Shown here: in pieces, positions 1 to 16,648 of the stretch
Numbering within the stretch: position 1 is the stretch's first letter
How the letters are laid out: every line of letters starts with the position of its first letter
From: a virus
Direction: 5' to 3' (one strand)
DNA: 18,430 nucleotides
UHGV virus genome: UHGV-0119144
Notes under the pieces: model-generated
What the model was told of the DNA's origin: nothing
Databases searched by the model: none
Seen by the model: only the letters and a program-made list of their open reading frames with translations
Position numbers and translations under genes: made by a program

Positions 1-62
1 GAGCACCTCAAAAACACCATCATACACTAAATCAGTAAGTTGGCAGCATCACCTATCACGGC

Positions 63-272
63 ATGCGAATTGAGCTTAAAGAACCAAATGGTAAAGCCCC
101 GACGAAAGAGCAGATCGCCTGGATGCGCAGGCTTAGAGAGGAAGGTTACTACGTCGTTCTTGCGTATGGTGCAGAACAAGCGATAACCGCCATCCTGGAA
201 TACATGAGCCTTAAAAAGGGTGAGGCTATTGAGCATGTATTGAACGGTGACAAGTGTTTGTACGCTACGTGA
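63..272 (+). CDS. Small protein resembling the C-terminal half of a VRR-NUC (PD-(D/E)xK) domain; probably a truncated remnant
   Basis: 69-aa ORF; IELKEPNGKAPTKEQIAWMRRLREEGYYVVLAYGAEQAI matches the E-x-K ... Q..W ... G..V half of VRR-NUC proteins. The N-terminal Asp-containing half is absent and an in-frame stop lies at 36-38. Confidence 0.35.
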   Translation: MRIELKEPNGKAPTKEQIAWMRRLREEGYYVVLAYGAEQAITAILEYMSLKKGEAIEHVLNGDKCLYAT

Positions 273-288
273 AATAATAAATTAATTA

Positions 289-495
289 GTGCATATGTGT
301 ATCTTTGATACAGCGCACATTAACATCGGGAGAATAATCGTGTCATCCAAGGCTAATTATGAATCGCTGGCATCGATCATGCCGCGTAATGAACAGGAAG
401 CAGATGCTGTAGTGGACCCGGTAATCGCTGAAATGAATGCTCGCCTGGAGGCTGAATTTGCAGCTGAGAATGAACATACCACCCAGGGCGACTAG
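289..495 (+). CDS. Small acidic hypothetical protein (more likely starting at GTG 340 behind GGGAG)
   Basis: ORF in track; acidic, alanine-rich C-terminus; its end overlaps the start of the next gene. No family recognised. Confidence 0.3.
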   Translation: MHMCIFDTAHINIGRIIVSSKANYESLASIMPRNEQEADAVVDPVIAEMNARLEAEFAAENEHTTQGD

Positions 496-1099
496 GACTG
501 TTTTTTGTGTCGGTAGCGGTCCGTCACTCACTCGTGAGGACTGTGCTGCTATAGAAAAAACTGGCTGTTCAATCATCGCGGTTAACAATTCCTGGCAGAT
601 GTTCGATGACATTTATGCCTTATACGCCGGTGATTTGTCATGGTGGAAGCAATACGGATCCACCATACCGGGAGGGAGATTCCGCAAAGTGACAGCCAAC
701 CTGGCGGCGGCGAAATCATTTTCGTTGGAGTACAGGCGATATTGTGGACCGGCTGAAGGGGTTAATAGCGGCGCGCAGGCTATCAGTCTGGCGGCTGAAT
801 CAGGGGCTAAAGTAGTTGTATTAGTCGGCTATGACTGTTCTCTGCAAAACGGCCTTCATTGGCATGGAGCACACCCTCAAGCACTACGGAATCCAACGCA
901 GGTGTCTATTTCAAAATGGCAACAGCAGTTCCTGGATACCCGCAAAAAACACGCAGATTTACATATTTTGAATGCAAGTAGGAGCAGTGCAATTCAATGT
1001 TTCCCAAGAATAAATTTAGAGGCAGTGATCGCGTTATTATCGTCGGCAGTGGCCCAAGCGCCGCAAACTTTGTTGCGCCGCGCGGAGTGCCGATTATAG
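470..1099 (+). CDS. GSGPS-motif protein, paralog A (sialyltransferase GT42 / DUF115-fold-like)
   Basis: Motifs VFCVGSGPSL, IIAVNNSW, NSGAQAISLA, VVVLVGYDCS arranged as in CstII-type/DUF115 nucleotide-sugar enzymes. Alternative start ATG 437. Tandem paralog of the next ORF with similar length (209 vs 208 aa). Confidence 0.5.
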   Translation: MNIPPRATRTVFCVGSGPSLTREDCAAIEKTGCSIIAVNNSWQMFDDIYALYAGDLSWWKQYGSTIPGGRFRKVTANLAAAKSFSLEYRRYCGPAEGVNSGAQAISLAAESGAKVVVLVGYDCSLQNGLHWHGAHPQALRNPTQVSISKWQQQFLDTRKKHADLHILNASRSSAIQCFPRINLEAVIALLSSAVAQAPQTLLRRAECRL

Positions 1100-1623
1100 C
1101 GGTCAATGGGGCCATAGACTGGCTTAACCGCGCTTCTTATTTTTTCACCCTTGATCCATCGCCAGACAATATGCGGCGCGTTGGTCGTGGCCGCCGTCGC
1201 CGTGGTGTTTGTTATTGCATGGCGCTACCCGATGTTAAAGAACGTGAGGTCAGAGACGGCGTTCTGTGCTTCCGTCGTGTGGCTGAGCGCGGCACGGAGC
1301 CAAAAAATACGAATTCTCCCGAGTGGTGGGCGTGGCGCTGGTCCGCACATTTCGGCCTTTGCGAAGATGAGAATGAAATTGCCAGCGGCAATAGTGCATA
1401 TGGTGCTCTGAACCTGGCTTTCCATATCGGATTCAAACATGTCGCCCTGGTGGGCGTTGACGCTACACAAGAACCACGCGTTCACTCCGGCGGCACGCCA
1501 AAAAATCTAAGTCACCTGCCTTTGTTATTCCAGTCTGCGCGTGAACAGATTGACGTTGTTTCATGCGGGAAAATGGGAGGTATTCCGCAGATGACTCTTA
1601 AAGAATGGCTGAAGAATACATGA
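997..1623 (+). CDS. GSGPS-motif protein, paralog B
   Basis: [38 protein letters not shown] motifs collinear with paralog A; overlaps the end of paralog A by about 100 nt; contains an Arg-rich stretch [11 protein letters not shown]. Confidence 0.5.
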
Positions 1624-2297
1624 TGGCACCAACAATTTATCACCGTATCGACGGTACCAAATACAGGAATATCTGGGTTGTTGGTGATCTGCATGGTTGC
1701 TACAACAGACTGATGTCCGAACTCCATCGTGTGGATTTTGACCCGGCGCAGGATTTACTGATATCGGTCGGCGACCTTATCGATCGCGGTACTGAAAATG
1801 TCGAATGTCTGGAACTATTGCAGATGCCCTGGTTCAGGGCAGTGATGGGGAACCATGAGCGGCTGATGATTGATGCGTTAAGTCCAGATGGCAACGTGAA
1901 TAACTGGCTAATGAATGGCGGACAATGGTTCTTCATGCTGGACACTGATCAGGAAATATTAGCCAGGGCGCTGGTGGAGCTGGTAAAGCGTCTGCCCTAT
2001 ATCATTGAGTTGAACACCGGGCAAGAAACTATCGTTATAGCCCATGCCGACTATCCGGATAATGAATACCAATTCGGTAAGGAGGTGCCGCTTTTCAACG
2101 TTGTCTGGGCGCGCGAGCGTATCAGTGATTCGATGGATGATATTGGTGGCGAAATTTCGGGCGCAGATCGTTTTATCTTTGGTCACACTCCGGTGAAAAG
2201 CCCGAAGACATTCTGGAATCAGCATTATATCGATACTGGTGCCGTATTTTGCGGAAACCTGACATTGATGAAAGTGAAAGGTGATGGTGCAGCATGA
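1605..2297 (+). CDS. Ser/Thr protein phosphatase, PPP/calcineurin-like family (lambda NinI / PrpA-like)
   Basis: Signature motifs GDLHG, GDLIDRG, GNHE in canonical order. Likely true start is ATG 1623, overlapping the upstream stop (TGATG). Confidence 0.85.
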
Positions 2298-2995
2298 AGA
2301 TTGCTTTAGTTCTTCGCTCTGGTGGTGACTATAACGCTTCCGATGTGCAGTGGCTGGTTAATCAACTGCCAAAAGGCTATGAAATTATTTGCCTGACAGA
2401 CCTGAAGCGTTTACATGTACCTGGCGTCAAAGTTGTCCCATTGATCAACCAGTGGCAAAAGTGCCGTGGCTGGTGGGCGAAAATCGAGTTGTTCCGACCG
2501 GATATAACCGATGATCTGTTCTATCTGGATTTGGACACGGTTATTGCCGGTGATATACGCCCAATCCTAGAGCATCCACCAACCAGCTTCACCATGCTTA
2601 GGGATTTTTACCATCCACAATATCGTGGCAGCGGTGCCCTGTGGATACCAAATAGTGTTAAAGCGCATATCTGGAGTTCATTCTGGCAAGATCCGGAAGG
2701 TTGGATTTCTCGTTGTGTCACTACTGAGTGCTGGGGTGACCAGGGGTTCTTACGAAAGGTTATGGGCGATGATACACCAGCATTTCAGGATCTGTATCCA
2801 GGATGGTTTGTAAGTTACAAGGCCGATGTTGTGGAACCTGGTTCAAAATATGCGAGCGCGCGTTACTCCAGGGGGAATGGGGCATTACCAAAAGACTGCC
2901 GAATAATCTTTTTCCACGGCAAACCGCGACCTCGCGAAGTGTCAGAGGATTGGCTTCCCCTTATCAGCTCATTTTTTGAGCGAGAATCAGAATAA
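2294..2995 (+). CDS. GT-A-like glycosyltransferase-family protein with DxD motif (function unknown)
   Basis: 233-aa ORF; start overlaps the phosphatase stop (ATGA); N-terminal beta-strand-like [11 protein letters not shown] followed by YLDLDTVI (DxD). Domain call is from motif pattern only. Confidence 0.5.
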
Positions 2996-2996
2996 T

Positions 2997-3013
2997 ATTG
3001 CTCTAATAATTCA
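2997..3013 (+). promoter_or_regulatory. P1 C1-repressor operator-like site (14/17 to ATTGCTCTAATAAATTT)
   Basis: attgctctaataattca immediately after the stop at 2993-2995. Confidence 0.55.
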
Positions 3014-3045
3014 ATATTTTTAAAACGTGATGTACACTCATCACA

Positions 3046-3062
3046 TTTTTTATTAGAGCAAT
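3046..3062 (-). promoter_or_regulatory. P1 C1 operator-like site in inverted orientation (14/17)
   Basis: Reverse complement reads attgctctaataaaaaa; forms an inverted pair with 2997-3013 around the palindrome gtgatgtacactcatcac (3027-3044). Confidence 0.5.
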
Positions 3063-3076
3063 CTGCAAGGTGCACT

Positions 3077-3295
3077 ATGTGGCCATTCCGACGGAAATAT
3101 CACTACTGGCTGATCGCCTTTGTTACGCCGACCGGCGGTATCAGGCATGTCATCACCAGGTATCGCAACAAGAGACTCACCTTAGCCAGAATTTTACAGG
3201 CTGCCATAGGTGAGGGACTGGATACAAATTGCGTAGTCCTTCCACCTTCATACTTAGGAAAAATGACCGAAGCACAAGCTAATACGGAACTTTGA
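3077..3295 (+). CDS. Hypothetical small protein (72 aa)
   Basis: ORF just downstream of the paired operators; AAGGTG 7 nt upstream of ATG; no recognisable domain. Confidence 0.3.
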   Translation: MWPFRRKYHYWLIAFVTPTGGIRHVITRYRNKRLTLARILQAAIGEGLDTNCVVLPPSYLGKMTEAQANTEL

Positions 3296-3451
3296 AATGA
3301 GCACTTCAGCACAAAACCAATCAATCGAAAATGTATCTAGAGGAAACTGCGGCAAGAAGACTTCTCGATGTTTGCTATGCACGTAGCGATGCATGGGAAA
3401 AAGAGAACGGCGGCACTATTTACGTTCGCTGATAGTTACAGTGTCACTTTT

Positions 3452-3486
3452 AATGCTGGTGGAGTGCTCCCACCAGCATTTTTTTC
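3452..3486 (+). terminator. Rho-independent terminator
   Basis: 11-bp perfect stem aatgctggtgg / ccaccagcatt with 7-nt loop, followed by a T7 run. Confidence 0.7.
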
Positions 3487-3504
3487 GTCCAATGAGGAGG
3501 GCAT

Positions 3505-4008
3505 TTGAGTATTTTCAATAAACACGCACACCAGGAACGTCCGTACATCGTCATAGTAGATATTGATGGGACGATATCAGAGGCAACGGAAGACAGGCTG
3601 CATTTACTTCCACCACCTGGCAAAGGTGCATTAACAGAGCACTGGAACGAGTTTAACCTTGCCTGTGACACTGATGCTCCCATCACTCCAGTTATTGATA
3701 TGGTGCGCCAGTTGTCCGGCATTTACACCCTCTGGTTTGTAACCGGGCGCTGTGAGATAGCCAGGGATAAAACACGAGCCTGGTTGCGTAAGCACGTAAC
3801 AAATGGGGCTGAGCCTTTGCTATCTATGCGTCCTGCCACCGATGACAGAAATGACGGTCCAGCAAAGATTGATCTCCTGAAGAAAATTGGTCTAAGTAAA
3901 ATTGCGTTCGCGCTGGAAGATAAGATTGAAGTGGCGCGTGTTTTCAGGAGTCACGGCGTACTTACGTTAATGGTCAGGGAGTATGAAAATGCGCTTCTTC
4001 ATCAATAA
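3505..4008 (+). CDS. HAD-superfamily phosphatase-like protein
   Basis: TTG start 7 nt after GAGGAGG; N-terminal VIVDIDGT (HAD motif I, DxDGT). 167 aa. Confidence 0.55.
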   Translation: MSIFNKHAHQERPYIVIVDIDGTISEATEDRLHLLPPPGKGALTEHWNEFNLACDTDAPITPVIDMVRQLSGIYTLWFVTGRCEIARDKTRAWLRKHVTNGAEPLLSMRPATDDRNDGPAKIDLLKKIGLSKIAFALEDKIEVARVFRSHGVLTLMVREYENALLHQ

Positions 4009-4010
4009 TA

Positions 4011-4027
4011 ATTGCTCTAATAAATCT
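4011..4027 (+). promoter_or_regulatory. P1 C1 operator-like site (16/17)
   Basis: attgctctaataaatct directly after the stop of the HAD-like gene; best consensus match in the window. Confidence 0.65.
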
Positions 4028-4109
4028 TGATTTTTAAAGCAAAGAAAGTGAAAATAAAAACATGCCGCAAGGCGCGGCATGTATCCAATCAATCACAGGA
4101 GCTGAAAAT

Positions 4110-4196
4110 ATGAACACGGCATTCAAAATCATTATGGCCGCGATCTATTTCTGGCTGTTCTCTATCACTTTTGGCGGCATCGTCGCGCATGGGTAA
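4110..4196 (+). CDS. 28-aa hydrophobic peptide (predicted single transmembrane helix)
   Basis: ATG preceded by AGGAG (acaggagctgaaaatATG); translation MNTAFKIIMAAIYFWLFSITFGGIVAHG. Not in the ORF track because of size. Confidence 0.4.
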   Translation: MNTAFKIIMAAIYFWLFSITFGGIVAHG

Positions 4197-4230
4197 GGGG
4201 AGTATATTAGCCATTTGGAACCCCACGGTC

Positions 4231-4260
4231 TCTTGCGGGTTTAATTAAGAACCCGCAAGA
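4231..4260. other. 11-bp perfect inverted repeat (stem-loop) between convergent genes
   Basis: tcttgcgggtt ... aacccgcaaga with palindromic loop ttaattaa; T-run upstream and A-run downstream, so not a canonical terminator on either strand. Confidence 0.4.
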
Positions 4261-4275
4261 AAAACACGAATTGGG

Positions 4276-7200
4276 CTATATTTTTCCGCCTACGTCTTTA
4301 AACTTCTCAATAAACGAGACGATTTTCTGGAAAACTGCCTGTTTTTTCGTTTTATATTGCGGATTTAACGGACTAAGTTTTGGTAATGTTTCGTTTAATT
4401 CTGTGCCATTTTCGGTGGCATATTTGCGTTTTAAAGATGTGCGAATATAGCGTTTTGCTGCATCTTCATTGAGATTTTCTTCTTTAATCAACGCTTCTGC
4501 TTCACGTAGCTGTTCGTGTTGAGCAAAGGTAAAGAACGCGTCAATGATGCTGGCTTTGTCTGGTAAATCATCCAGGTTCGTTTGCTGAATAAAATCGACC
4601 ACCAGGCCCTCTTTCGCCCGGTTCCCCAGGCTTGAACGAATTAAGCGTTTGACCTCTTCGATCATTTCGCCCTTGCCTTTATTTTGTCTGTTATGTTCGA
4701 AAATCAGTCCAAGGATATAATCCAGGTTTATTTCCTGAGATTTCAGCAAATCGACCTCAAAAACTACGTCATCCCAGTCAGTGGTTGATTTCTCTTTTTT
4801 CTCAGCTTCTTTCTCACGGCGCTGCCAGTCGCGAATATCGTTATAGGCAGAACGATAATCCTGAATCTTGCGATCAGCAGGGAGACGAATTGTTTGCAAT
4901 TCAGCGAACTTTTCATCATCCACATAATGTTCTGCTTTGAATTTTTCTACCGCAACAGGATCGCTAAGATCGATTTGTTGCAGGGCTTTTAGCGTGGCAA
5001 ATTCATCATAGTTTTGCAGGATGTTCTCGGCACGCAGGTATTCGCCAAACAGTTTAACGAAGTCTTTCTTCTCTTTTTCACTTTCAATACTGGCAGGGTC
5101 AGGGAACCGTTGTTCCAGTTCTGAAACTACTGTCATGAAGCCGCGTTTAGCTTCACCTGTAGCAGCATCAGTAAAGCCTTCCATATACTCTGTATAACTC
5201 TTTTCTAACACCACATTTTTGGTGTTTTTGTCACCAAACAGCGTTATGGCATCAATAGTTGAGCGTTCCAGATCCCGGAAAGTGACGATATTACCGAAGG
5301 TTTTAGTTGCATCATAAATACGGTTGGTGCGGGAAAATGCCTGCATCAGGCCGTGAAAACGCAAGTTTTTATCGACGAATAGCGTGTTCAATGTTGGAGC
5401 ATCGAAGCCGGTTAAAAACATCCCCACGACAATTAGCAGATCGATATCCTGATTTTTAACCCGCTGGGCTAAATCACGATAGTAGTTCTGAAAACCGTTA
5501 CTGTCGGTGCTAAAGTTAGTTTTAAAATGGCTGTTATATTCACGAATTGCAGCGTCCAGAAACTCTTTAGCACTGCTGTCCATTGCGCTGGTATCAAAAG
5601 TTTCATCGGAAATTTCACCAATGGCATTTTGTTCTTCATTGGCGGCAAAGGAGAAGATTGTCGCAATACGCAGCGGTTTATAGGTAGCCGATTTATTAGC
5701 GGCTTCTTCTTGTAACCGTTTAAACGTCGCATAATAGGCTTTCGCGGCATCCACGCTGCTCACTGCCAGCATGGCATTAAAGCCTTTGGAGCCTGGGAAG
5801 GTACGGTGGGTTTTCTGGCGGAAGTTGTTCAGGATATATTGCGTGATTTCCTGAATACGCATGGGATGAAGAAACGCCTGCTGATTTTCAGCCGCACTTA
5901 GTTTTTTCTCGTCAGTTTCTGTCTCTAAAGACTTAAACTGTGGCCGCACATCGTTGTAGTCTACCTTGAATTTGAGCACTTTTTCGTCACGAATCGCATC
6001 GGTAATTACATACGAATGCAATTCACGACCAAATACGCTGGCGGTTGTTTCTGAGCCTAAGGCGTTTTCCGGGAAAATAGGGGTGCCGGTAAAACCAAAC
6101 TGATAATAGCGTTTGAATTTCTTCTTCAGGTTTTTCTGCGCTTCTCCAAACTGGCTGCGGTGGCATTCATCAAATATAAACACCACTTGCTGATTATATA
6201 CAGGCAGGTCGCTTTCTGCTTTCATCAGGTTATTGAGTTTCTGAATAGTGGTGACGATAATTTTGTTATCGTCCTTATCCAGATTTCGTTTAAGACCTGC
6301 GGTATTTTCCGAGCCGTTGACGCTGTCTGGCGAAAAACGCTGGTATTCCTTCATGGTCTGGTAATCGAGGTCTTTCCTGTCGACCACGAAGAAGACTTTA
6401 TCAATAAAGTCCAGTTCTGTTGCCAGACGCGCGGCTTTAAAGCTGGTCAGTGTTTTACCAGAACCGGTAGTGTGCCAGATAAAGCCACCGCTTTCGGGGT
6501 TAGACCAGTTTTTCGCTTTATAGGAGCTGTTGATTTTCCATAAGATTCGTTCGGTGGCGGCAATCTGGTACGGTCGCATCACCAGTAGCGTCTGACTACT
6601 GTCAAAAACGCTGTAGTTCACCAGAACATTCAGCAGAGTATGTTTCTGGAAAAAGGTAGCGGTAAAGTCTTTGAGGTCTTTAATCAGCGTGTTGTCTGAT
6701 TTCGCCCAATTCATGGTGAAGTCAAAACTGTTTTTATCGCGCTTTGTCGTGTTGGCAAAATAACGGGTATCGGTGCCGTTAGAAATGACAAACAGTTGCA
6801 GATACTTAAACAGGGAATTTTCGCTGTTAAAACTCTCTTTACTGTAACGATGTATCTGGTTGAAAGCCTCACGAATCGCCACCCCGCGTTTTTTTAGTTC
6901 GATTTGCACCAGCGGTAAACCATTAACCAGGATCGTGACGTCATAACGGTTAGCATGAGAACCCGTCTGTTCAAACTGCTGGATAATCTGCACCTTATTG
7001 CGCATGAGATTCTTTTTATCTATCAAATAGATGTTCTCAAGACGCTCGTCATCAAAAATAAAGTCGCAAATATAGTCGATATGGATTTTACGGGTCTTAT
7101 CCAGAATGCCATCACTCGGGTTGTCCAGATACTGCTCCGTGAAACGCCGCCATTCGCTGTCATTAAACACCACACCATTGAGGTTCTGAAGCTGTTCCCG

Positions 7201-7392
7201 AACGTTGGCCAGCATCGCCGACTGTGATTTTACGGGTATAAATTCATAGCCCTGATTTCGCAGGTCCTGAATCAGTTCCCGTTCCAGGTCCGATTCACTC
7301 TGATAGCTGTCGCCTGTTGGCTCAGCTTTGATGTACTTATCAAGAACGATAAAGTTATTGGATTCAGCAATGGTGTGTGTCTGATGAGTCAT
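4276..7392 (-). CDS. hsdR: Type I restriction enzyme R subunit (HsdR), type IC / EcoR124 family
   Basis: 1038 aa; PD-(D/E)xK nuclease motif ([18 protein letters not shown]), helicase motifs TGSGKT and FDECH; N-terminus [14 protein letters not shown] as in EcoR124-type HsdR. Confidence 0.95.
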
Positions 7393-7513
7393 AGCGCATC
7401 CTTTGTGCCGTCTGGCAAGGGCCGGAAGGGAGTTAAGGGCGACTTCCGGCGTGTAGAAAATAGTCTATATACTGACCGGATGTTAAGGTGGTCCGGTCTG
7501 TAAAAATGCTCAA

Positions 7514-8727
<1,214 letters not shown>

Positions 8728-8731
<4 letters not shown>

Positions 8732-10290
8732 TTCTGCACCTCGCAGCCTTCAATTTCAGCCACAATCGCATCAATATCTTTACGCAACTGGTCGATTTTG
8801 CTGACCGTGGTTTTCAGCTCTGCATTCAACTCAGCGATATTGATAATTTCGCGAGTATCTTTCGCTTCCACATAGCTGCTTACCGACAGGTTATAGTCAT
8901 TAGCGACAACGGCCTCAAACGTGACAGATTTTGCCAGATGAGCAACATCTTCCTTGCTGGAAAATACCTGCATAATCTGTTCGATATGGGCATCAGTCAG
9001 GATGTTGTTATTAGTCTCTTTTTTGAATAGCTCGCTGGCGTCAATAAACTGAACGTTGGTATCGGTTTTATGTTTAGACAGCACCAGAATATTGACGGCA
9101 ATGGTGGTGCCAAAGAACAGATTCGGTGCCAGTGAAATCACGGTTTCGACATAGTTATTGTCGACCAGATACTGACGGATTTTCTGCTCCGCACCGCCAC
9201 GGTAAAAAATACCCGGGAAGCAAACAATCGCAGCACGACCTTTGGCAGAAAGATAGTTCAGCGCATGTAATACAAACGCAAAGTCAGCTTTGGATTTGGG
9301 GGCCAGAACGCCAGCCGGGGCAAAACGTTCATCGTTAATCAGCGTCGGGTCATCGCTGCCAATCCATTTCACCGAATACGGCGGGTTAGAAACGATGGCA
9401 TCAAACGGTTTTTCATCTCTGAAGTGCGGTTCAGTCAGCGTATTGCCCAGCTTGATATCAAACTTGTCGTAGTTGATGTTGTGCAAAAACATGTTCATAC
9501 GCGCCAGGTTATAGGTCGTATGGTTGATTTCCTGACCAAAAAAACCTTCTTCGATGATATGGTCATCAAACTGTTTTTTAGCCTGCAACAACAGCGAACC
9601 GGAGCCTGCTGCCGGGTCGTAGATTTTGTTAACGTGGGTCTGCCCGTGCATAGCCAGTTGTGCAATCAGCTTAGAGACGTGCTGCGGTGTAAAGAACTCG
9701 CCGCCTGACTTACCGGCATTTGCCGCATAGTTAGAGATCAGGAACTCATAGGCATCACCGAACAGGTCAATCTGATGTTCGTTGAAGTCACCAAGTTTTA
9801 ACCCTTCAACCCCTTTCAGAACCGCAGCCAGGCGGGCATTTTTATCTTTAACGGTGTTACCCAGGCGGTTACTGGTGGTATCGAAATCAGCAAACAAACC
9901 TTTGATGTCTGCTTCTGAAGGGTAGCCGTAAGCAGAACTTTCGATAGCAACGAAGATGCTGTTTAAATCTGCGTTCAGTCTGTCATTGGTATTTGCTTTC
10001 GCAGCTACGTTGCAGAAAAGCTGACTTGGGTAGATGAAGTAGCCTTTGGTTTTGATGGCATCGTCTTTAATGTCATCAGTAATTACGCTGTCATCCAGTT
10101 TCGCATAACAGATGCTGTCATCACCGGCTTCAATATAGCTGGAAAAATTTTCGCTGATAAAACGGTAGAAAAGCGCGCCCAGAACGTATTGCTTAAAATC
10201 CCATCCATCGACCGAACCTCTGACATCGTTAGCAATTTGCCAGATTTGACGATGAAGCTCTGCACGTTGTTGAATACTTGTCATTTTCAT
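8728..10290 (-). CDS. hsdM: Type I N6-adenine DNA methyltransferase subunit (HsdM), type IC
   Basis: 520 aa; SAM-binding motif [10 protein letters not shown] and catalytic NPPY. Confidence 0.95.
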
Positions 10291-10427
10291 CCACTTATTT
10301 CAGGCTTATGTAATTGGCGGTGATTCTACAGCAACTTGGATGCTTTAGCAGTTCGGACATTAGGCTACGAATGACCTGCCTAGAGGTTTGTTAAGCCGCA
10401 AAGTGCTGGTGCTTTATGCCTGTGAAG

Positions 10428-10460
10428 TTTATAATTGTGTACACATAACGAGTACACGAG
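10428..10460 (+). promoter_or_regulatory. phd-doc promoter with Phd/Doc autoregulatory operator palindromes
   Basis: -10 TATAAT at 10430-10435, followed by perfect palindrome tgtgtacaca (10436-10445) and related gagtacac (10450-10457), then GAGG RBS. Confidence 0.6.
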
Positions 10461-10466
10461 GTATTT

Positions 10467-10688
10467 ATGCAATCCATTAACTTCCGTACCGCGCGCGGCA
10501 ACCTTTCTGAAGTGCTCAACAATGTTGAGGCCGGGGAAGAGGTTGAAATCACCCGCAGAGGCCGTGAGCCAGCAGTAATTGTCAGCAAGGCTACTTTTGA
10601 AGCCTACAAAAAAGCGGCGCTGGATGCTGAATTTGCATCCCTGTTTGACACCCTGGACTCCACCAACAAGGAACTGGTTAACCGATAA
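10467..10688 (+). CDS. phd: Phd antitoxin (Phd/YefM family), P1-type
   Basis: 73 aa, [49 protein letters not shown]; stop overlaps the doc start (TAATG). Confidence 0.95.
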
Positions 10689-11068
10689 TGAGGCATATAT
10701 CACCGGAAGAACTTATTGCGCTTCATGATGCGAATATAAACCGCTACGGCGGCCTGCCGGGAATGTCTGATCCGGGTAGGGCAGAGGCCATTATCGGGAG
10801 AGTTCAGGCCAGAGTTGCCTACGAAGAGATCACCGACCTTTTCGAAGTCTCCGCCACCTACCTGGTGGCTACGGCGAGAGGGCATATATTCAATGATGCC
10901 AATAAGCGTACCGCGCTAAACAGTGCGCTGCTATTTCTACGCCGTAACGGGGTGCAGGTATTTGATTCACCTGAACTGGCAGACCTTACTGTAGGCGCTG
11001 CGACTGGCGAGATATCTGTATCTTCTGTCGCCGACACGTTACGTAGATTGTATGGTTCTGCGGAGTAG
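10688..11068 (+). CDS. doc: Doc toxin (Fic-fold kinase), P1-type
   Basis: 126 aa with Fic motif HIFNDANKR. Confidence 0.95.
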
Positions 11069-11072
11069 ATTA

Positions 11073-11252
11073 ATGGCACGTAAATACAACAAATTGTCCC
11101 GTGAAGCGTTAAAGATGCTTCTTGATGGCGTGAGTCGCCGCGAGGTAAAGCAATACCTGGCTGGTAAGCAAATTGGTGCCAGGACCGCTATTGCTGTGTT
11201 ATGCCGTCAGGAAATGGTTGTGCTTAAACAGAGAATGCCGGGCAGCATATAA
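11073..11252 (+). CDS. Small basic hypothetical protein (occupies the P1 pdcA position)
   Basis: 59-aa ORF starting 4 nt after the doc stop: MARKYNKLSREALKMLLDGVSRREVKQYLAGKQIG. The track's longer version (11052) overlaps doc. Confidence 0.4.
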   Translation: MARKYNKLSREALKMLLDGVSRREVKQYLAGKQIGARTAIAVLCRQEMVVLKQRMPGSI

Positions 11253-11279
11253 AGCCCAATCAGTGATTAAAGGTGTGAT

Positions 11280-12323
11280 GTGAAAGCCGTAATTACTCCC
11301 TTTGTACAGAAAGAACTTGGCCTCGCCACGTTCAAAGTGGATCAGGAGGTCAGAAAGCTGGTGGAGGCTGGCCGTAAATTTATTATGGAGCCGGTGCCGC
11401 GTGAGTTAATCGAGCACATGGACGACGGCCTCGTTGCTTCCGAGCAAACTATAGCAACAAATGAGGCGTTGCAGCCGTTTTTTAACAGCGATGAACTGTT
11501 TCGCCGTATTGGTGGAATTGACGCGCTGGTGGCGTGGTTGCGCAGGAAAGAGGGGCAATGCCAGGCCGCAGATCGTAGCTGGTGTGACAACCATATTGTC
11601 CACGCTGAACGAGACAATAGCGCGGTGTTGTTGTGCTGGCATCACGATAACCATTACCGGATGCGTGGTTTTAATGAGCTGAAAGAAACGCTGCACAATA
11701 ATCGCGTTAACTGGATACTGGATGTCGCCCGTCAGGAAATGGGCCTTTCAGATAGCCATGATTTAAGTATTCAGGAGCTGTGCTGGTGGGCTTTCATGCG
11801 TAACATGATGCACCTGATGCCGGAAGAAGTCTGCCGCATATCAATAAATAAGATGAAGGCTGCTCCGCAGGATAGCGGACCTCTGAAAGAGGCGGATATT
11901 CGCCCGTATGACGATCGCGCTACAGCATATGTTCAGATGATGGAAGAACGCGCCGCGCCGATGCGTGCAAAAGTATGCCCTGTGGATGTTGACTCCGACC
12001 CAGGTATGGCGCATTTCAAAATACCAAAACTTCAATCGCTAAAATTGCCCGAGTACATGGACTTTGTGGCTTCCCGTCCATGCTGTGGCTGTGGAGCTGC
12101 GGGAGCTGGCGCTCACATTACGCCTTATATCGTTCGTCATAGTCGATTATGCGCGCATGACATTTACGCAATTCCTCTGTGCCAGTCATGCCAGCGTGAT
12201 ATTGAGCGTGACCGCGATAATTGGGAGAAGACGCACGGTAGGCTGGCGATGCATCAACGATTGTTCTTTGATTACGCGCTTGGAGTCGGCGCTATCACAA
12301 GTTACTCGTCGAGCGTTAGATAA
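11280..12323 (+). CDS. Cys/His-rich hypothetical protein (occupies the P1 pdcB position)
   Basis: 347-aa ORF, GTG start behind AAGGTG; metal-ligand-like clusters [15 protein letters not shown]...CWHHDNH and C-terminal CCGCGAAG...LCAHD...CQSCQRD. Confidence 0.5.
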
Positions 12324-12324
12324 A

Positions 12325-12341
12325 ATTGCTCTAATGTATTG
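12325..12341 (+). promoter_or_regulatory. P1 C1 operator-like site (14/17), with an overlapping partial repeat ATTGCTAT
   Basis: attgctctaatgtattg immediately after the stop at 12321-12323; followed by inverted repeat gattag/ctaatc around TTGACA (12376-12398). Confidence 0.5.
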
Positions 12342-12411
12342 CTATTTCTTTAATCGATGGTATTATATTCCACGTTGATTAGTTGACATGGGCTAATCAG
12401 TAGGTGACAGG

Positions 12412-12726
12412 ATGTTACTTAACTGGCAGGGACGCCACTTCATGGAAATAAATCACTCACGAATAACATCGTACGAGATTGCGAATTACATGATCCGCAC
12501 TAAATCTCTTCTATCAGCGAAAGAACTCGCAGCAATTCTTGAAAAGGAATACCCGCATCTGGATGTCGATAAGCGCGATGTTTATCTGCGCTTAAAAGCT
12601 ATCGCTGTGTCTAAGTATTCGTCTGTTTTGATTGATGACAGTACGAACGAAAGCGTGAAAATAACTGGTCAGTGCTGGAAGCAGCTGAATTCATCGAGGC
12701 GCATGGCGGGAAAGTGCCGCCCCTGA
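12412..12726 (+). CDS. Hypothetical protein (alternative start ATG 12442); possible late-activator (lpa-position) gene
   Basis: ORF downstream of an operator; no domain recognised; overlaps the next ORF by 55 nt. Confidence 0.3.
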
Positions 12727-13043
12727 TGCTGGAGCAAATCAAAGCCGATCTGCGTGCTCCTAAGACCAATACCGATGATGAGGAAAGGCAAACAGCCGTC
12801 GGTGGCCCTTCTCTTGAAGATCTGGACAAAGTTGCGCGAGAACGGGCCGCCAACCGCCGCGCCGATGCCGCATTGTGGATTGAGCAGCGTAGGGAAGAAA
12901 TCGCCGATATCGTTGATACAGGCGGTTATGGAGATGTTGATACTGAAGGTGTATCAAACGACCCATGGCTGGAACAAGACCTGGACGAAGACGAGGAGGA
13001 AGACGAAGAAGTTACCCGCAAGCTATACGGGGATGATGATTAA
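12672..13043 (+). CDS. Acidic protein translationally coupled to terminase large subunit (possible small-subunit remnant)
   Basis: GTG start; C-terminus [12 protein letters not shown]...DDD; stop overlaps the ATG of the next gene (TAATG). No cluster of TGATCA/G pac hexamers seen in 12300-13100. Confidence 0.35.
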
Positions 13044-14956
13044 TGGCCAGAAGTTGCGTAACGGATCCACGTTGGCGCGAGCTGGTGGCGCTATATCGTT
13101 ATGACTGGATTGCGGCCGCTGATGTTTTGTTCGGCAAAACACCTACCTGGCAGCAGGATCTGATTATTGAGTCTGTGCAGGAACAGGGTAGCAAGACATC
13201 TGTTTCGTCTGGTCACGGTACCGGGAAATCAGACATGACTTCTATCATGATCATGTTGTTCATAATCATGTATCCCGGTGCCCGCGCCATTATCGTTGCG
13301 AACAAAATTCAGCAGGTAATGACCGGTATATTCAAGTACATCAAGATAAACTGGGCTACTGCCACCAGCCGTTTTCCATGGCTTGCTGATTATTTTGTTC
13401 TGACAGAAACCGCTTTCTATGAGGTTACTGGTTGGATTTGCCCCTATATTTCCAGACACCTGTTATCACTTAACCCATTACTGGCTTGCTGCCGTAGATA
13501 TTCCCGTGGCGAGCGATAACCCAGTGCACTATGCGGATGCCATTCGTTATAATGCTCGAACGCCTCTGCAAGGTTCTTTGCTGCCGTTAACCCGTCTGGT
13601 TTGGGCATGACACTGATGTAGTCACGCTTTATCGTTTTCACGAAGCTCTCTGCTATGCCGTTACTCTCCGGACTCCGCACCGCCGTGCTCTTCGGTTCAA
13701 GCCCCAACATCCGGGCAAACTGCCGTGTTTCATTAGCCCGGTAGCATGAACCATTATCCGTCAGCCACTCTACTGGAGACGCCGGAAGCTCGTTGCCGAA
13801 GCGGCGTTCCACCGCTCCCAGCATGACGTCCTGTACTGTTTCACTGTTGAAGCCGCCCGTAGTGACCGCCCAGTGCAGTGCCTCACGGTCACAGCAGTCC
13901 AGCGCGAACGTGACTCGCAGTTTTTCTCCGTTATCACAGCGGAACTCGAACCCGTCAGAGCACCATCGCTGATTACTTTCTTTCACAGCCACTCTGCCTG
14001 TATGTGCCCGTTTCGATGGCGGTACAGCAGGTTTTCGCTCAAGCAACAGCGCATTCTGGCGCATGATCCGGTAAACACGTTTGGCATTGATCGCAGGCAT
14101 ACCATCAAGTTCTGCCTGTCTGCGAAGCAGCGCCCATAACAGTGAGGAATCACCGCTGGTAACGTCAGAATTTATCAAAATGAAGCTGGCGGAGTACGGC
14201 GGGCGTGATAACCCTATGTACATGATTAAGGTACGCGGCCTATTCCCTAAATTACAGGACGGCTTCCTTCTTGGACGTGATGAGGTTGAACGTGCGACGC
14301 GGCGGAAAGTCAAGATTGCCAAAGGATGGGGCTGGCTTGCATGTGTGGACGTTGCTGGTGGTACAGGACGGGATAAGTCCTTTATCAATATCATGATGGT
14401 GTCCGGCCAGCGAAATAAACGCCGTGTAATCAACTATCGAATGCTGGAATACACAGACGTTACAGAAACGCAGCTTGCCGCCAAAATTTTCGCAGAATGT
14501 AATCCTGAGCGATTCCCCAATATCACCATAGCGATAGACGGCGATGGCCTGGGTAAAGCAACGGCGGATCTGATGTACGAGTATTATGGTATTACCGTAC
14601 AGCGTATACGCTGGGGTAAAAAGATGCATAGCCGTGAAGATAAGAGCCTGTACTTTGATAAACGTGCTTATGCCAACGTTCAAGCCGCAGAGGCCGTAAA
14701 ATCTGGTCGTATGAGACTGGATAAGGGTAATGAAACTATTGAGGAAGCGTCGAAAATCCCTGTAGGGATTAACTCCGCAGGTCAATGGAAGGTGATGAGT
14801 AAGGAGGATATGAAGAAAAAACTCAACCTGCACTCACCAGACCATTGGGATACATATTGTTTCGCTATGCTGGCGGATTATGTTCCCCAGGACGAAGTGC
14901 TTAGCGTCGAAGACGAAGCGCAGGTTGATGAAGCTCTGGCATGGCTTAATGAATAA
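13043..14956 (+). pseudogene. Terminase large subunit (PacB-like) interrupted by an IS2 fragment
   Basis: N-terminal 130 codons (13043-13432) carry a deviant Walker A (SSGHGTGKS); C-terminal part (about 14139-14956) is terminase-like. The two parts are separated by 706 bp of IS2 and are not joinable in frame. Confidence 0.55.
13433..14138 (-). mobile_element. insD: IS2 (IS3 family) 3' fragment: right terminal region plus C-terminal ~230 codons of insD
   Basis: Minus-strand translation 13444-14136 matches IS2 InsD from [28 protein letters not shown] to NRCLEI; IS2 terminus TGGATTTGCCCCTATATTTCCAGACACCTG at 13433. insC and the left end are absent. Confidence 0.88.
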
Positions 14957-14976: not shown

Positions 14977-15107
14977 TGTTTTTTGACTGCCGATGTTACA
15001 TTGAACCTGACCTCTTGCGCCTTGAGGCATTTTCGGTTTATGCTTATCAGGCACCTCATTAAAACGGGTGCCGGGATTGAGACCCCGGATAATGTCAAAG
15101 GCGACAC

Positions 15108-15130
15108 AGACGCCGAAAGCGTCTTTTTTT
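15108..15130 (+). terminator. Rho-independent terminator / attenuator inside the immI leader
   Basis: Stem agacgc / gcgtct with loop cgaaa, followed by a T7 run. Confidence 0.6.
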
Positions 15131-15315
15131 GTGTCATGCCATCGCACAGCCATACGTAGCGTTTAGCTCCGAAATCAATGGTAGTGCTGGCTGGGCTGCC
15201 GAAAGGCAGGCCGGTTCCCTTTGACGCCGGTAGTCTCAACCCAGTCAGTGCTACCGCCATTGAGATTGAGACCTCACGCGGTAGCTCCTTAACTTAGTCA
15301 AAGGAGGCTGCCATT

Positions 15316-15537
15316 ATGGCTACTGTCCCTACCCCAATTCATCCTGAATTTATCTGGCGCTTTTACTCCTGCCAAAAACGTCACTATCACTTCGTTATTG
15401 CACCGACAGAAGATGAGGCCCATTCTCAGCTTCCTGACGCTCCCTGCATTTTCTCTGCCCGCTTTTCAACCGATTTGCGCAATTCTCTCAGTTACTGGTG
15501 CCTCCCTGTTAACGCTTCTGCTCAGGAGGGACTATGA
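15316..15537 (+). CDS. Icd-like small protein (73 aa), translationally coupled to ant
   Basis: AAGGAGG RBS; stop overlaps the ant start (ATGA); size and position match P1 icd. Sequence identity not confirmed from memory. Confidence 0.45.
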   Translation: MATVPTPIHPEFIWRFYSCQKRHYHFVIAPTEDEAHSQLPDAPCIFSARFSTDLRNSLSYWCLPVNASAQEGL

Positions 15538-16648
15538 GAACGTCATTAGTTACCCGTGAAGAGATGATCGAGGCAATTGAACAGCACACTGCCTGTATCA
15601 GTACTAGGGATATACCGGGCGTTATTGCCAACTACTTCATGATCACCAAACAACTTTACCGGAGAAAGGACAAGAACGCAGTTCACCGCATCCTGCTGTC
15701 TGATATCCGCGAATACCTGCTCGAACAGGGGCATCTGAATTACGCAACCGTCGCAGCCGAAGCACGCAAGGAGGCACACAGAATGAAAGCTACTAACGTT
15801 AAATCAGAAAAAGTTCATGCACCTTCAGTTCAGGAATCAGAGCTGGTGGTTGTTCAAAATCAGTCGGATGAAATTCCCGTTCTGGAGTGGCAGGGAGTGC
15901 GTGTCGTAACAACCGAAACTCTTGCTAAGGGGTATGGTACAGAAGCGATTCGCATTCGCCAGAATCATCATGAGAACAAAGTACGCTTTGTTGAAGCGAA
16001 GCACTTTTTCAAGGTTATTGGCGATGAGCTGAAAAATTTGCGGGTAGCTTTAAACTACTCACAAAATCCAGTCTCCCCCAAAGCGCGCTCTCTCATCCTC
16101 TGGACAGAACGAGGAGCTGCCCGTCACGCTAAAATGCTCGAAACCGATCAGGCATGGGCATTCTTTGAAAAACTGGAAGACAGCTACTTCCGACAAAAAG
16201 AACAGCAACCGGTCGCAATCCCCCAGACGCTTCCAGAAGCTCTGCGCCTGGCTGCCGAGTTAGCTGAACAAAAGCAACTTCTGGAACAGAAAGCCCACCA
16301 GCTAAATCAGCAGCTGGTGGCTGCCGCTTCTAAAGTCGATTTTGCCGACCGGGTATCAGTAGCTAAAGGGATCCTGATTGGGAATTTTGCAAAGGTCGTT
16401 GGACTTAAACAAAATGCGCTGTTTGCCTAGTTACGGGAGAACGGCATTCTGATAGCGTCCGGAGGCCGTAAAAATGTACCGTTCCAGCAGTACATCAACG
16501 CGGGTATTTCACGGTGAAAGAAGTGGTGCTGGATGATGAAGATGGCTACCAGATACGGTTGACGCCTCAATTAACGGGTAAAGGCCAGCAGTGGTTGACG
16601 CGTAAACTGCTCGATGCTGGCTTGTTAAAACCGGTGGCGGCTGAATAA
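15534..16648 (+). pseudogene. ant: Antirepressor (AntA/Bro-N-like core plus KilAC-type C-terminus) with nonsense and frameshift lesions
   Basis: Open to TAG at 16428-16430, sitting where KilAC proteins have an aromatic residue (LFA*LRENG). The downstream KilAC-like sequence continues in frame as ILIASGGRKNVPFQQYINAG, then shifts by one frame near 16502 into GYFTVKEVVLDDEDGYQIRLTPQLTGKGQQWLTRKLL. Confidence 0.6.

Follow-up and report, generated by a model that had tools for sequence, protein, structure and literature searches.

The window is the whole stretch of DNA analysed here, 18,430 nucleotides of the virus genome UHGV-0119144. It contains a complete hsd gene set in the order hsdM-hsdS-hsdR. 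The genes and the regions that belong to them are as follows.

4276-7392, minus strand: hsdR, 1038 aa, translocase/endonuclease subunit (Pfam EcoR124_C, 5.5e-71)
7393-7513, minus strand: hsdS-hsdR spacer, 121 bp, non-coding, the presumed place of a separate hsdR promoter
7514-8731, minus strand: hsdS, 405 aa, specificity subunit (two Pfam Methylase_S stretches, 5.1e-59)
8183-8218, minus strand: TAEL repeat array, three perfect tandem copies of the 12-bp unit ACCGCTGAGCTT encoding 12 residues, the type IC spacer-length repeat
8728-10290, minus strand: hsdM, 520 aa, N6-adenine methyltransferase subunit (Pfam HsdM_N and N6_Mtase, 2e-121)
10291-10390, minus strand: region upstream of hsdM, 100 bp, cassette-specific, the presumed hsdMS promoter region

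By ORF calls and Pfam, all three genes are intact and full length. HsdR contains the domains HSDR_N, SWI2_SNF2/ResIII, T1R_D3-like, and EcoR124_C (5.5e-71). ORFs of these lengths with these Pfam E-values are far beyond chance. The junction between hsdM and hsdS reads GAAATGAGCGAG. It contains an ATGA overlap in which the hsdS ATG (8731-8729) lies over the hsdM TGA (8730-8728). The span 4276-10290, the intact genes, the overlap, and the 121-bp gap given in the original prediction all hold to the base. It also placed the hsd genes opposite to their neighbors, and the ORF calls agree, with the hsd genes on the minus strand and pap, phd, and doc on the plus strand.

The hsdS-hsdR spacer contains a 7-bp inverted repeat. 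It also contains a weak sigma-70-like site at 7486-7457 (TTAACA-18-TATTTT, 9/12 consensus) that is no better than shuffled sequence. The promoter/terminator scan found 7 promoter-like sites in the region versus 11.5 in shuffled sequence, so this match is not evidence for a promoter and only its position is claimed. hsdR probably has its own promoter within the 121-bp gap. No consensus promoter was scored by the promoter scan in 10291-10390. This region is divergent from Pphd, which sits in P1-shared DNA starting at 10391. Rfam and tRNA scans of the cassette gave no matches inside it.

The features that flank the hsd genes, and the slot that holds them, are as follows.

3505-4008, plus strand: pap, in the P1-shared left flank
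4011-4027, plus strand: C1 operator (P1 Op88/OpmgT), one mismatch to consensus, with predicted PpmgT promoters
4060-4082, minus strand: intrinsic terminator, a 10-bp GC-rich stem followed by TTTTATTTTC, in the P1-shared flank
4110-4196, plus strand: small ORF of 28 codons, hydrophobic and conserved (MNTAFKIIMAAIYFWLFSITFGGIVAHG), with an AGGAG ribosome-binding site
4201-10390, no strand assigned: hsd allele of the P1 variable slot, 6,190 bp in place of P1 84483-87969 (pmgT to humD, 3,487 bp)
10467-10688 (phd) and 10688-11068 (doc), plus strand: phd-doc type II toxin-antitoxin operon (Pfam PhdYeFM_antitox, 2.8e-13, and Fic/DOC, 2e-9)

The operator scan found six C1 operator-like sites versus 0.11 expected. 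Op88 and the predicted PpmgT promoters now face the 3' end of hsdR. The terminator lies 194 nt past the hsdR stop codon. The small ORF at 4110-4196 had no PHROG match, and the left cassette boundary is a few bases past its stop codon. On the right, the antitoxin gene is followed directly by the toxin gene, and phd-doc has 98% nucleotide identity to P1.

The slot boundaries were placed at 4200/4201 and 10390/10391 by blastn against P1 and by boundary alignments. Both are sharp and intergenic. The original prediction had proposed an alignment to P1 and a GC comparison as checks. The alignment defined boundaries that coincide with the 4201-10390 block, and the GC content was 43.2% in the cassette versus 47.7% and 49.3% in the flanks, with 38% in hsdS. 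In P1 the slot contains pmgT-pmgU-pmgV-upfM/N/O-hot-lxr-humD (reference annotation, NC_005856), which bears out the position of humD-lxr-hot upstream of phd stated in the original prediction. The canonical P1/P7 allele has the same flanks as the window (pap, Op88, the small ORF, phd, and doc) but entirely different cargo, which lies on the opposite strand and spans 3.5 kb rather than 6.2 kb. RCS47 has a third allele in the slot. The pmgT-humD region is "highly variable region 8" of P1-like phage-plasmids (PMC9603915). In NC_005856, 84263-84482 and 87969-88647 already carry notes of homology to the DNA on either side of the EcoDXXI and R124/3 hsd loci, so the slot breakpoints had been marked before this analysis. 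The ends of the cassette share no k-mers of at least 8 nt (4140-4300 versus 10300-10450). No flanking repeats, transposase, or integrase were found at the ends, and there is no transposase ORF inside.

The proposed P1-like (Punavirus) backbone is confirmed, with 95 to 98% identity to P1 over pmgN-pap, phd-lpa', and c1-coi. It is a decayed P1, with pmgS, lpa, pacA, and pacB disrupted, and it does not contain the full lytic and packaging set of a viable phage. pmgS has a 1,127-bp deletion relative to P1. A 1,100-bp deletion takes out the 3' half of lpa, LPpac, the pac site, and 795 bp of pacA. An IS2 fragment splits pacB, and a deletion lies next to it.

The system is a complete type IC system of the EcoR124 family, as was originally predicted. 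HsdR matched EcoR124I HsdR (2w00_A) with 2280 bits over 1-1038, and about 13 of the 1,010 displayed residues were different, which gives about 98.7% identity. HsdM matched the EcoR124 M chain (7bst_D) with 1154 bits and 6 differences in 520 residues, or about 98.8% identity. HsdR has an intact PD-(D/E)xK nuclease motif D...ELK (YDVT...IELKK), Walker A motif GSGKT, and DECH box. HsdM has the AdoMet-binding motif DPAAGSGS and NPPY. Type I families were originally defined by complementation, hybridization, and antibody cross-reaction (PMC3874209).

EcoR124I and EcoR124II (plasmids R124 and R124/3) have the same gene order, hsdM-hsdS-hsdR. They also have P1-derived DNA on both sides. The window cassette has full P1 backbone at its flanks, whereas R124 and R124/3 have only short remnants. 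R124/3 shares just 84 bp with P1 downstream of hsdR (P1 annotation; matches to query 217-600). EcoprrI is also type IC, and it has three TAEL repeats (PMC3874165) like the window HsdS. The title of Tyndall et al. 1997 gives it P1-like flanks. The window cassette does not encode prrC, as there is no extra domain-bearing ORF in 4201-10390 and the 121 bp between hsdS and hsdR are non-coding. Assignment to the EcoprrI type (type IC with the prrC anticodon nuclease) was ruled out, as the hsd operon has no embedded prrC. A prrC-like insert had been suspected from extra ORFs between hsdM and hsdR in phage phi456, and these proved to be an IS5-family transposase that splits hsdS.

The conserved N-terminal, central, and C-terminal regions of HsdS are identical to those of the EcoR124 S chain (7bst_A). 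Both target recognition domains (TRDs) are unlike those of EcoR124I, so the half-site specificities would differ. Assignment of a recognition sequence by TRD similarity failed, as EcoR124I was the sole characterized comparator and its TRDs are different. The nearest HsdS relatives (P0001-P0003) have 97 to 99% identity, 401 aa, two TAEL repeats, and a 4-aa gap relative to the window. None of the 120 relatives listed has more than two TAEL copies, versus three in the window HsdS. EcoR124II also has three. No PLSDB plasmid covered at least 80% of the window hsdS. An identical 405-aa HsdS gene was called on an ENA contig (L006), so a negative exact-sequence look-up for HsdS is unreliable and is not evidence of uniqueness. 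This copy is distinguished by a rare TRD combination together with the third TAEL repeat, and by its decayed P1 backbone.

The number of TAEL repeats sets the length of the spacer between the half-sites in type IC systems (PMC3874165). With three repeats, the window HsdS is predicted to recognize a target whose spacer exceeds that of the two-repeat sister alleles by one base. The corresponding change from EcoR124I to EcoR124II is N6 to N7.

The arrangement is widespread. The hsdM-phd junction was present in 661 PLSDB plasmids, in 653/5,426 complete E. coli genomes (12%), and in two P1-like phage records. The pap-hsdR junction was present in 257 PLSDB plasmids, and more than 100 plasmids span at least 80% of the whole window. 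Phages phi456 and vB_EcoM-673R5 contain the same cassette at the same locus. They share its breakpoints and neighbors with the window, as does E. coli H15 plasmid A (NZ_CP010179.1), the closest complete plasmid. The breakpoints do not vary among phages and plasmids that come from many different hosts and countries. The hsdS genes differ. That of vB_EcoM-673R5 has other TRDs, that of phi456 is interrupted by the IS5-family transposase, and that of H15 plasmid A is truncated, whereas the window hsdS is intact. The window and H15 plasmid A share two deletions, one in pmgS and one in lpa-pacA, as well as the IS2 in pacB, and the window has a further IS2-adjacent deletion.

The cassette is thus not novel, as phi456, vB_EcoM-673R5, and hundreds of plasmids have it at the same locus. 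The original prediction had named the same hsd cassette at this locus in P1-family genomes as a finding that would refute it, and these phages and plasmids, along with 12% of complete E. coli genomes, supply that finding. The prediction of a cassette replacement holds in that 4201-10390 is an exact alternative to P1 84483-87969, but as an event it is neither new nor remarkable. Type IC hsd loci flanked by P1 DNA go back to Tyndall et al. 1997, as cited in PMC12707154. The arrangement, described in 1997 and present in hundreds of E. coli plasmids, is already known; it is real but ordinary.

We put the probability at about 90% that 4201-10390 is the type IC EcoR124-family hsd allele of a known P1-like phage-plasmid slot that runs from pap/Op88 to phd-doc. 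Given the near-identity to EcoR124I, the same mode of action is expected. HsdM2-HsdS1 would methylate adenines in a bipartite recognition site whose sequence is determined by the two TRDs of HsdS. With HsdR it would translocate DNA using ATP and cut unmethylated incoming molecules at a long distance from that site. The ATGA overlap couples hsdM and hsdS translationally. The host of the plasmid would likely benefit through protection from other phages and plasmids. The cassette most likely moves by homologous recombination in the conserved flanks, among P1-like elements and into conjugative plasmids.

The cassette may instead be an inactive relic in a decaying plasmid, with ORFs intact by recent descent and genes that are unexpressed or inactive. 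With a backbone that lacks pmgS, half of lpa, the pac site, most of pacA, and part of pacB, the system might be silent even with its ORFs intact. The truncated hsdS of the sister plasmid H15-A indicates that the cassette can be inactivated in this lineage, and no strong promoters were scored. However, there are three full-length ORFs with every catalytic motif present and few differences from EcoR124I. Losing phage functions does not imply losing cargo that benefits a plasmid. We consider a relic unlikely.

The hsd genes and phd-doc might also form one selected "stabilization block", as was originally predicted, in which the restriction-modification (R-M) system would be an addiction module alongside the toxin-antitoxin pair. 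As neighbors, hsdM and phd point away from each other across 176 bp. To our knowledge, tests on type I systems have found no resistance to loss. Post-segregational killing is known for some plasmid-borne R-M systems (PMC12707154), but the references for this are not type I-specific, and the kinetic study among them is on type II. Type IC systems are adapted to establish themselves without harm and to alleviate restriction (PMC12707154, PMC3874165). In conjugative plasmids the cassette is accompanied by phd and a portion of doc (P1 annotation and junction counts), but co-travel with phd would be expected anyway from recombination within the flank. phd-doc is a constant right border with other fillings too, namely humD in P1, P7, SJ46, and RCS47. 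Since the humD allele borders on phd-doc too, adjacency is no evidence for an addiction module. The block is therefore unsupported, and we think it quite improbable.

A recent, element-specific insertion by a transposon, integron, or site-specific recombinase would fit the lower GC content of the cassette (43.2% versus 48 to 49% in the flanks) and the opposite strand of its genes, but it is hardly credible and was rejected, as there are no mobility genes and no terminal repeats of at least 8 nt at either end, 3,487 bp of P1 are absent as in a replacement, and the same breakpoints recur across many hosts and countries, in phages as well as plasmids.

As an hsd allele of the P1 slot, the cassette shows in clear textbook form how type I systems spread. 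It sits in a hot spot of P1-like phage-plasmids and can be exchanged there as a unit. Its specificity would have diversified by TRD shuffling and by expansion of the 12-bp repeat. The boundaries at 4200/4201 and 10390/10391 can be used to annotate the slot. The element is a P1 derivative without packaging and late-activation functions that retains immunity, a toxin-antitoxin pair, and defense cargo.

Two further readings are speculative, and both are improbable. The first is that Op88 directs antisense transcription into hsdR and links restriction to lysogeny. In the hsd allele Op88 no longer drives pmgT-U-V, and there is no plus-strand terminator between Op88 and the 3' end of hsdR. C1 derepression on prophage induction could give antisense transcription and less HsdR, which would tie restriction to the lysogenic state. 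The second, separate reading is that the three-TAEL allele arose recently. The rare TRD combination with its third TAEL repeat may represent a fresh specificity that circulates in human gut E. coli.

The window encodes a type IC restriction-modification system of the EcoR124 family. The three hsd ORFs of the original prediction agree exactly with the ORF list, and Pfam and PADLOC concur on them. The toxin-antitoxin genes phd and doc lie just past hsdM.

4276-7392, minus strand: hsdR, 1038 aa (Pfam HSDR_N, SWI2_SNF2/ResIII, T1R_D3-like and EcoR124_C, 5.5e-71; PADLOC REase_I)
7514-8731, minus strand: hsdS, 405 aa (Pfam, two Methylase_S stretches, 5.1e-59; PADLOC Specificity_I)
8728-10290, minus strand: hsdM, 520 aa (Pfam HsdM_N and N6_Mtase, 2e-121; PADLOC MTase_I)
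10467-10688, plus strand: phd
10688-11068, plus strand: doc

HsdR aligns end to end with the HsdR of EcoR124I (PDB 2w00_A; 2280 bits), with about 13 substitutions over the 1,010 residues displayed. Its nuclease motif, GSGKT Walker A motif and DECH box are all intact. Of the 520 HsdM residues, 6 depart from the EcoR124 M chain (7bst_D), and DPAAGSGS and NPPY are retained. HsdS shares the conserved N-terminal, central and C-terminal regions of the EcoR124 protein, but both target-recognition domains (TRDs) differ. The type IC assignment made earlier is therefore upheld.

Because HsdR and HsdM are near-identical to those of EcoR124I, M2S1 would be expected to methylate a bipartite target. R2M2S1 would translocate DNA using ATP and cleave unmodified DNA at a distance. 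We infer the activity, recognition sequence and promoters of the system. Type IC systems establish safely in new hosts by staged assembly through an R1M2S intermediate and not by ClpXP proteolysis (PMC12707154; PMC3874165).

hsdM and hsdS are translationally coupled, with the ATG of hsdS overlapping the TGA of hsdM (ATGA). The predicted 121-bp gap between hsdS and hsdR is also present (7393-7513). It probably contains a promoter for hsdR, as had been proposed, although the sole candidate (7486-7457) resembles the consensus only weakly. A strong canonical intrinsic terminator on the minus strand (4082-4060), 194 nt past the hsdR stop, likely ends the hsdR transcript. It lies within the flank shared with P1, which has no minus-strand gene near the equivalent position. 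The terminator is functionally sensible only with hsdR upstream of it, a hint that the flank coevolved with the hsd allele.

The window was assigned as P1-like (Punavirus), and blastn against P1 (NC_005856) matched both flanks. Window positions 54-3339 and 3338-4200 correspond to P1 up to base 84482, and positions 10391-12644 correspond to P1 from base 87970. The 6,190 bp between them (4201-10390) stand where P1 has 3,487 bp containing pmgT, pmgU, pmgV, upfM/N/O, hot, lxr and humD. The alignment shows the predicted cassette replacement relative to P1, next to phd, with breakpoints (4200/4201 and 10390/10391) that enclose the hsd block. The left breakpoint is a few bases past the stop of a 28-codon small ORF, and the right one coincides with the stop of humD and lies upstream of Pphd. 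The GC content of the cassette was 43.2% (hsdS, 38%), lower than the 47.7% and 49.3% of the flanks. The two cassette ends share no terminal repeats of at least 8 nt, and no mobility gene was found with the cassette.

The C1 operator Op88 is at 4011-4027 with one mismatch. It and its predicted promoters are now oriented toward the 3' end of hsdR, and no plus-strand terminator was found between Op88 and hsdR. Induction-dependent antisense transcription of hsdR from these promoters is a speculative and unlikely possibility. The small ORF (4110-4196, plus strand) follows the C1-controlled Op88 promoter, has an AGGAG ribosome-binding site and encodes a conserved hydrophobic 28-aa product, MNTAFKIIMAAIYFWLFSITFGGIVAHG. 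It was found in every allele compared, is unannotated in the P1 reference and had no PHROG match. Its product may be a small membrane peptide.

The hsd arrangement at this slot is already known and very common. It is not new because misc_features of the P1 reference mark exactly these breakpoints: 84263-84482 ('96 pct identical to E. coli sequence downstream of EcoDXXI hsd locus'), 84399-84482 ('98 pct identical to plasmid R124/3 sequence downstream of hsdR') and 87969-88647 ('98 pct identical to conjugative plasmid sequence upstream of EcoDXXI hsd locus'). Tyndall et al. (1997, cited in PMC12707154) reportedly described type IC hsd loci as bordered by P1 DNA. A survey that took 54 representatives from a set of 77 P1-like phage-plasmids lists the pmgT-humD segment as 'highly variable region 8' (PMC9603915). 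In RCS47 the slot holds a third allele, which is longer. The hsdM-phd junction was found in 661 of 1,291 matching PLSDB plasmids, 653 of 5,426 complete E. coli genomes and two phage records (phi456 and vB_EcoM-673R5), so the replacement is neither a new nor a noteworthy event. The pap-hsdR junction was found in 257 PLSDB plasmids, and 102 covered at least 80% of the whole 18.4-kb window. In many other plasmids, the left-junction match begins only at window position 4117, a short R124-type P1 remnant. Phage phi456 (L005, 9983-12420) has the same cassette, but there an IS5-family (DDE_Tnp_1) transposase, misannotated as 'putative baseplate hub protein', splits hsdS.

It was also proposed that hsd and phd-doc form one restriction-modification plus toxin-antitoxin stabilization block. 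The hsd genes do enter conjugative plasmids together with phd and some of doc, but recombination in the flanks would give the same result. The adjacency to phd-doc belongs to the slot and not to the cassette, as the humD alleles of P1, P7, SJ46 and RCS47 have the same neighbor. The PSK references retrieved do not deal specifically with type I systems, which have dedicated restriction-alleviation behavior. A joint block is very improbable, and the original prediction is partly supported: its observation was confirmed and its interpretation was borne out in part.

The central region of HsdS contains three perfect copies of the 12-bp repeat ACCGCTGAGCTT (8183-8218), encoding TAEL three times. The closest HsdS relatives (P0001-P0003, 97 to 99% identical) differ essentially in having one copy fewer, and three copies were found in none of the best 120 HsdS relatives listed. 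In type IC systems, the length of the spacer depends on how many TAEL repeats are present (PMC3874165). EcoR124I has two and recognizes GAA N6 RTCG; EcoR124II has three, as in the window, and recognizes GAA N7 RTCG (PMC3874165). EcoDXXI and EcoprrI likewise have three (PMC3874165). Judged by its sequence, the specificity allele is a rare recombinant, because no PLSDB plasmid covers at least 80% of the whole hsdS while some share single TRDs. The mechanisms that yield such alleles are textbook for the type IC family. TRD1 of the window is found at the second TRD position in some relatives (P0004 and P0041), which illustrate movement of TRDs between positions within the HsdS family. In P0004 it occupies both positions, and the target would then be palindromic.

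Contigs from human gut metagenomes (e.g., ENA ERZ915976 k127_8482) match the window at 100% identity. The closest complete relative is the IncY plasmid A of E. coli H15 (NZ_CP010179.1; 98.8% identity), which has several lesions in common with the window but a truncated hsdS. The following features are in the remaining backbone.

3297-3432: pmgS remnant, 136 nt, out of frame
13433-14138: IS2 fragment in pacB, 706 bp, 100% identical to IS2 insD DNA
15051-15129: isrK-like RNA, 60 bits
15174-15261: C4 antisense RNA, 75 bits
15316-15537: icd, part of an immI-type module
15534-16430: antirepressor, PHROG 63

pmgS has lost 1,127 bp relative to P1, with a 2-bp microhomology at 3338-3339, and shares this deletion with H15 plasmid A. 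At 12412-13043 (junction 12642-12644), the window is 1,100 bp shorter than P1, and lpa is fused after codon 78 to 3' sequence of pacA. Lost in this deletion are the 3' half of lpa, the late promoter (LPpac), the pac cleavage site and 795 bp from the start of pacA. What remains is a 104-aa Lpa'-fusion ORF and a C-terminal remnant of PacA. P1-style packaging would be impossible for this element. H15 plasmid A has a full IS2 in pacB, whereas another 905 bp are missing from the window there (the rest of IS2 and about 280 bp of pacB), an IS-adjacent deletion. The backbone no longer represents a viable phage. Given the pmgS, lpa-pacA and pacB lesions, the element resembles a plasmid derived from P1 in which immunity (c1, coi and a c4-icd-ant module), addiction (phd-doc) and defense (hsd) have been retained.

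The immI-type module (15051-16430), made up of the last four features listed, is between pacB and c1. P1 lacks it at this position, whereas RCS47 and vB_EcoM-673R5 have it. Beyond cre, H15 plasmid A (80000-96500) contains IS26, IS110-family elements and a heat-resistance island (trx-GI, kefB-GI and psiE-GI); in P1 this place is occupied by the type III res-mod genes.
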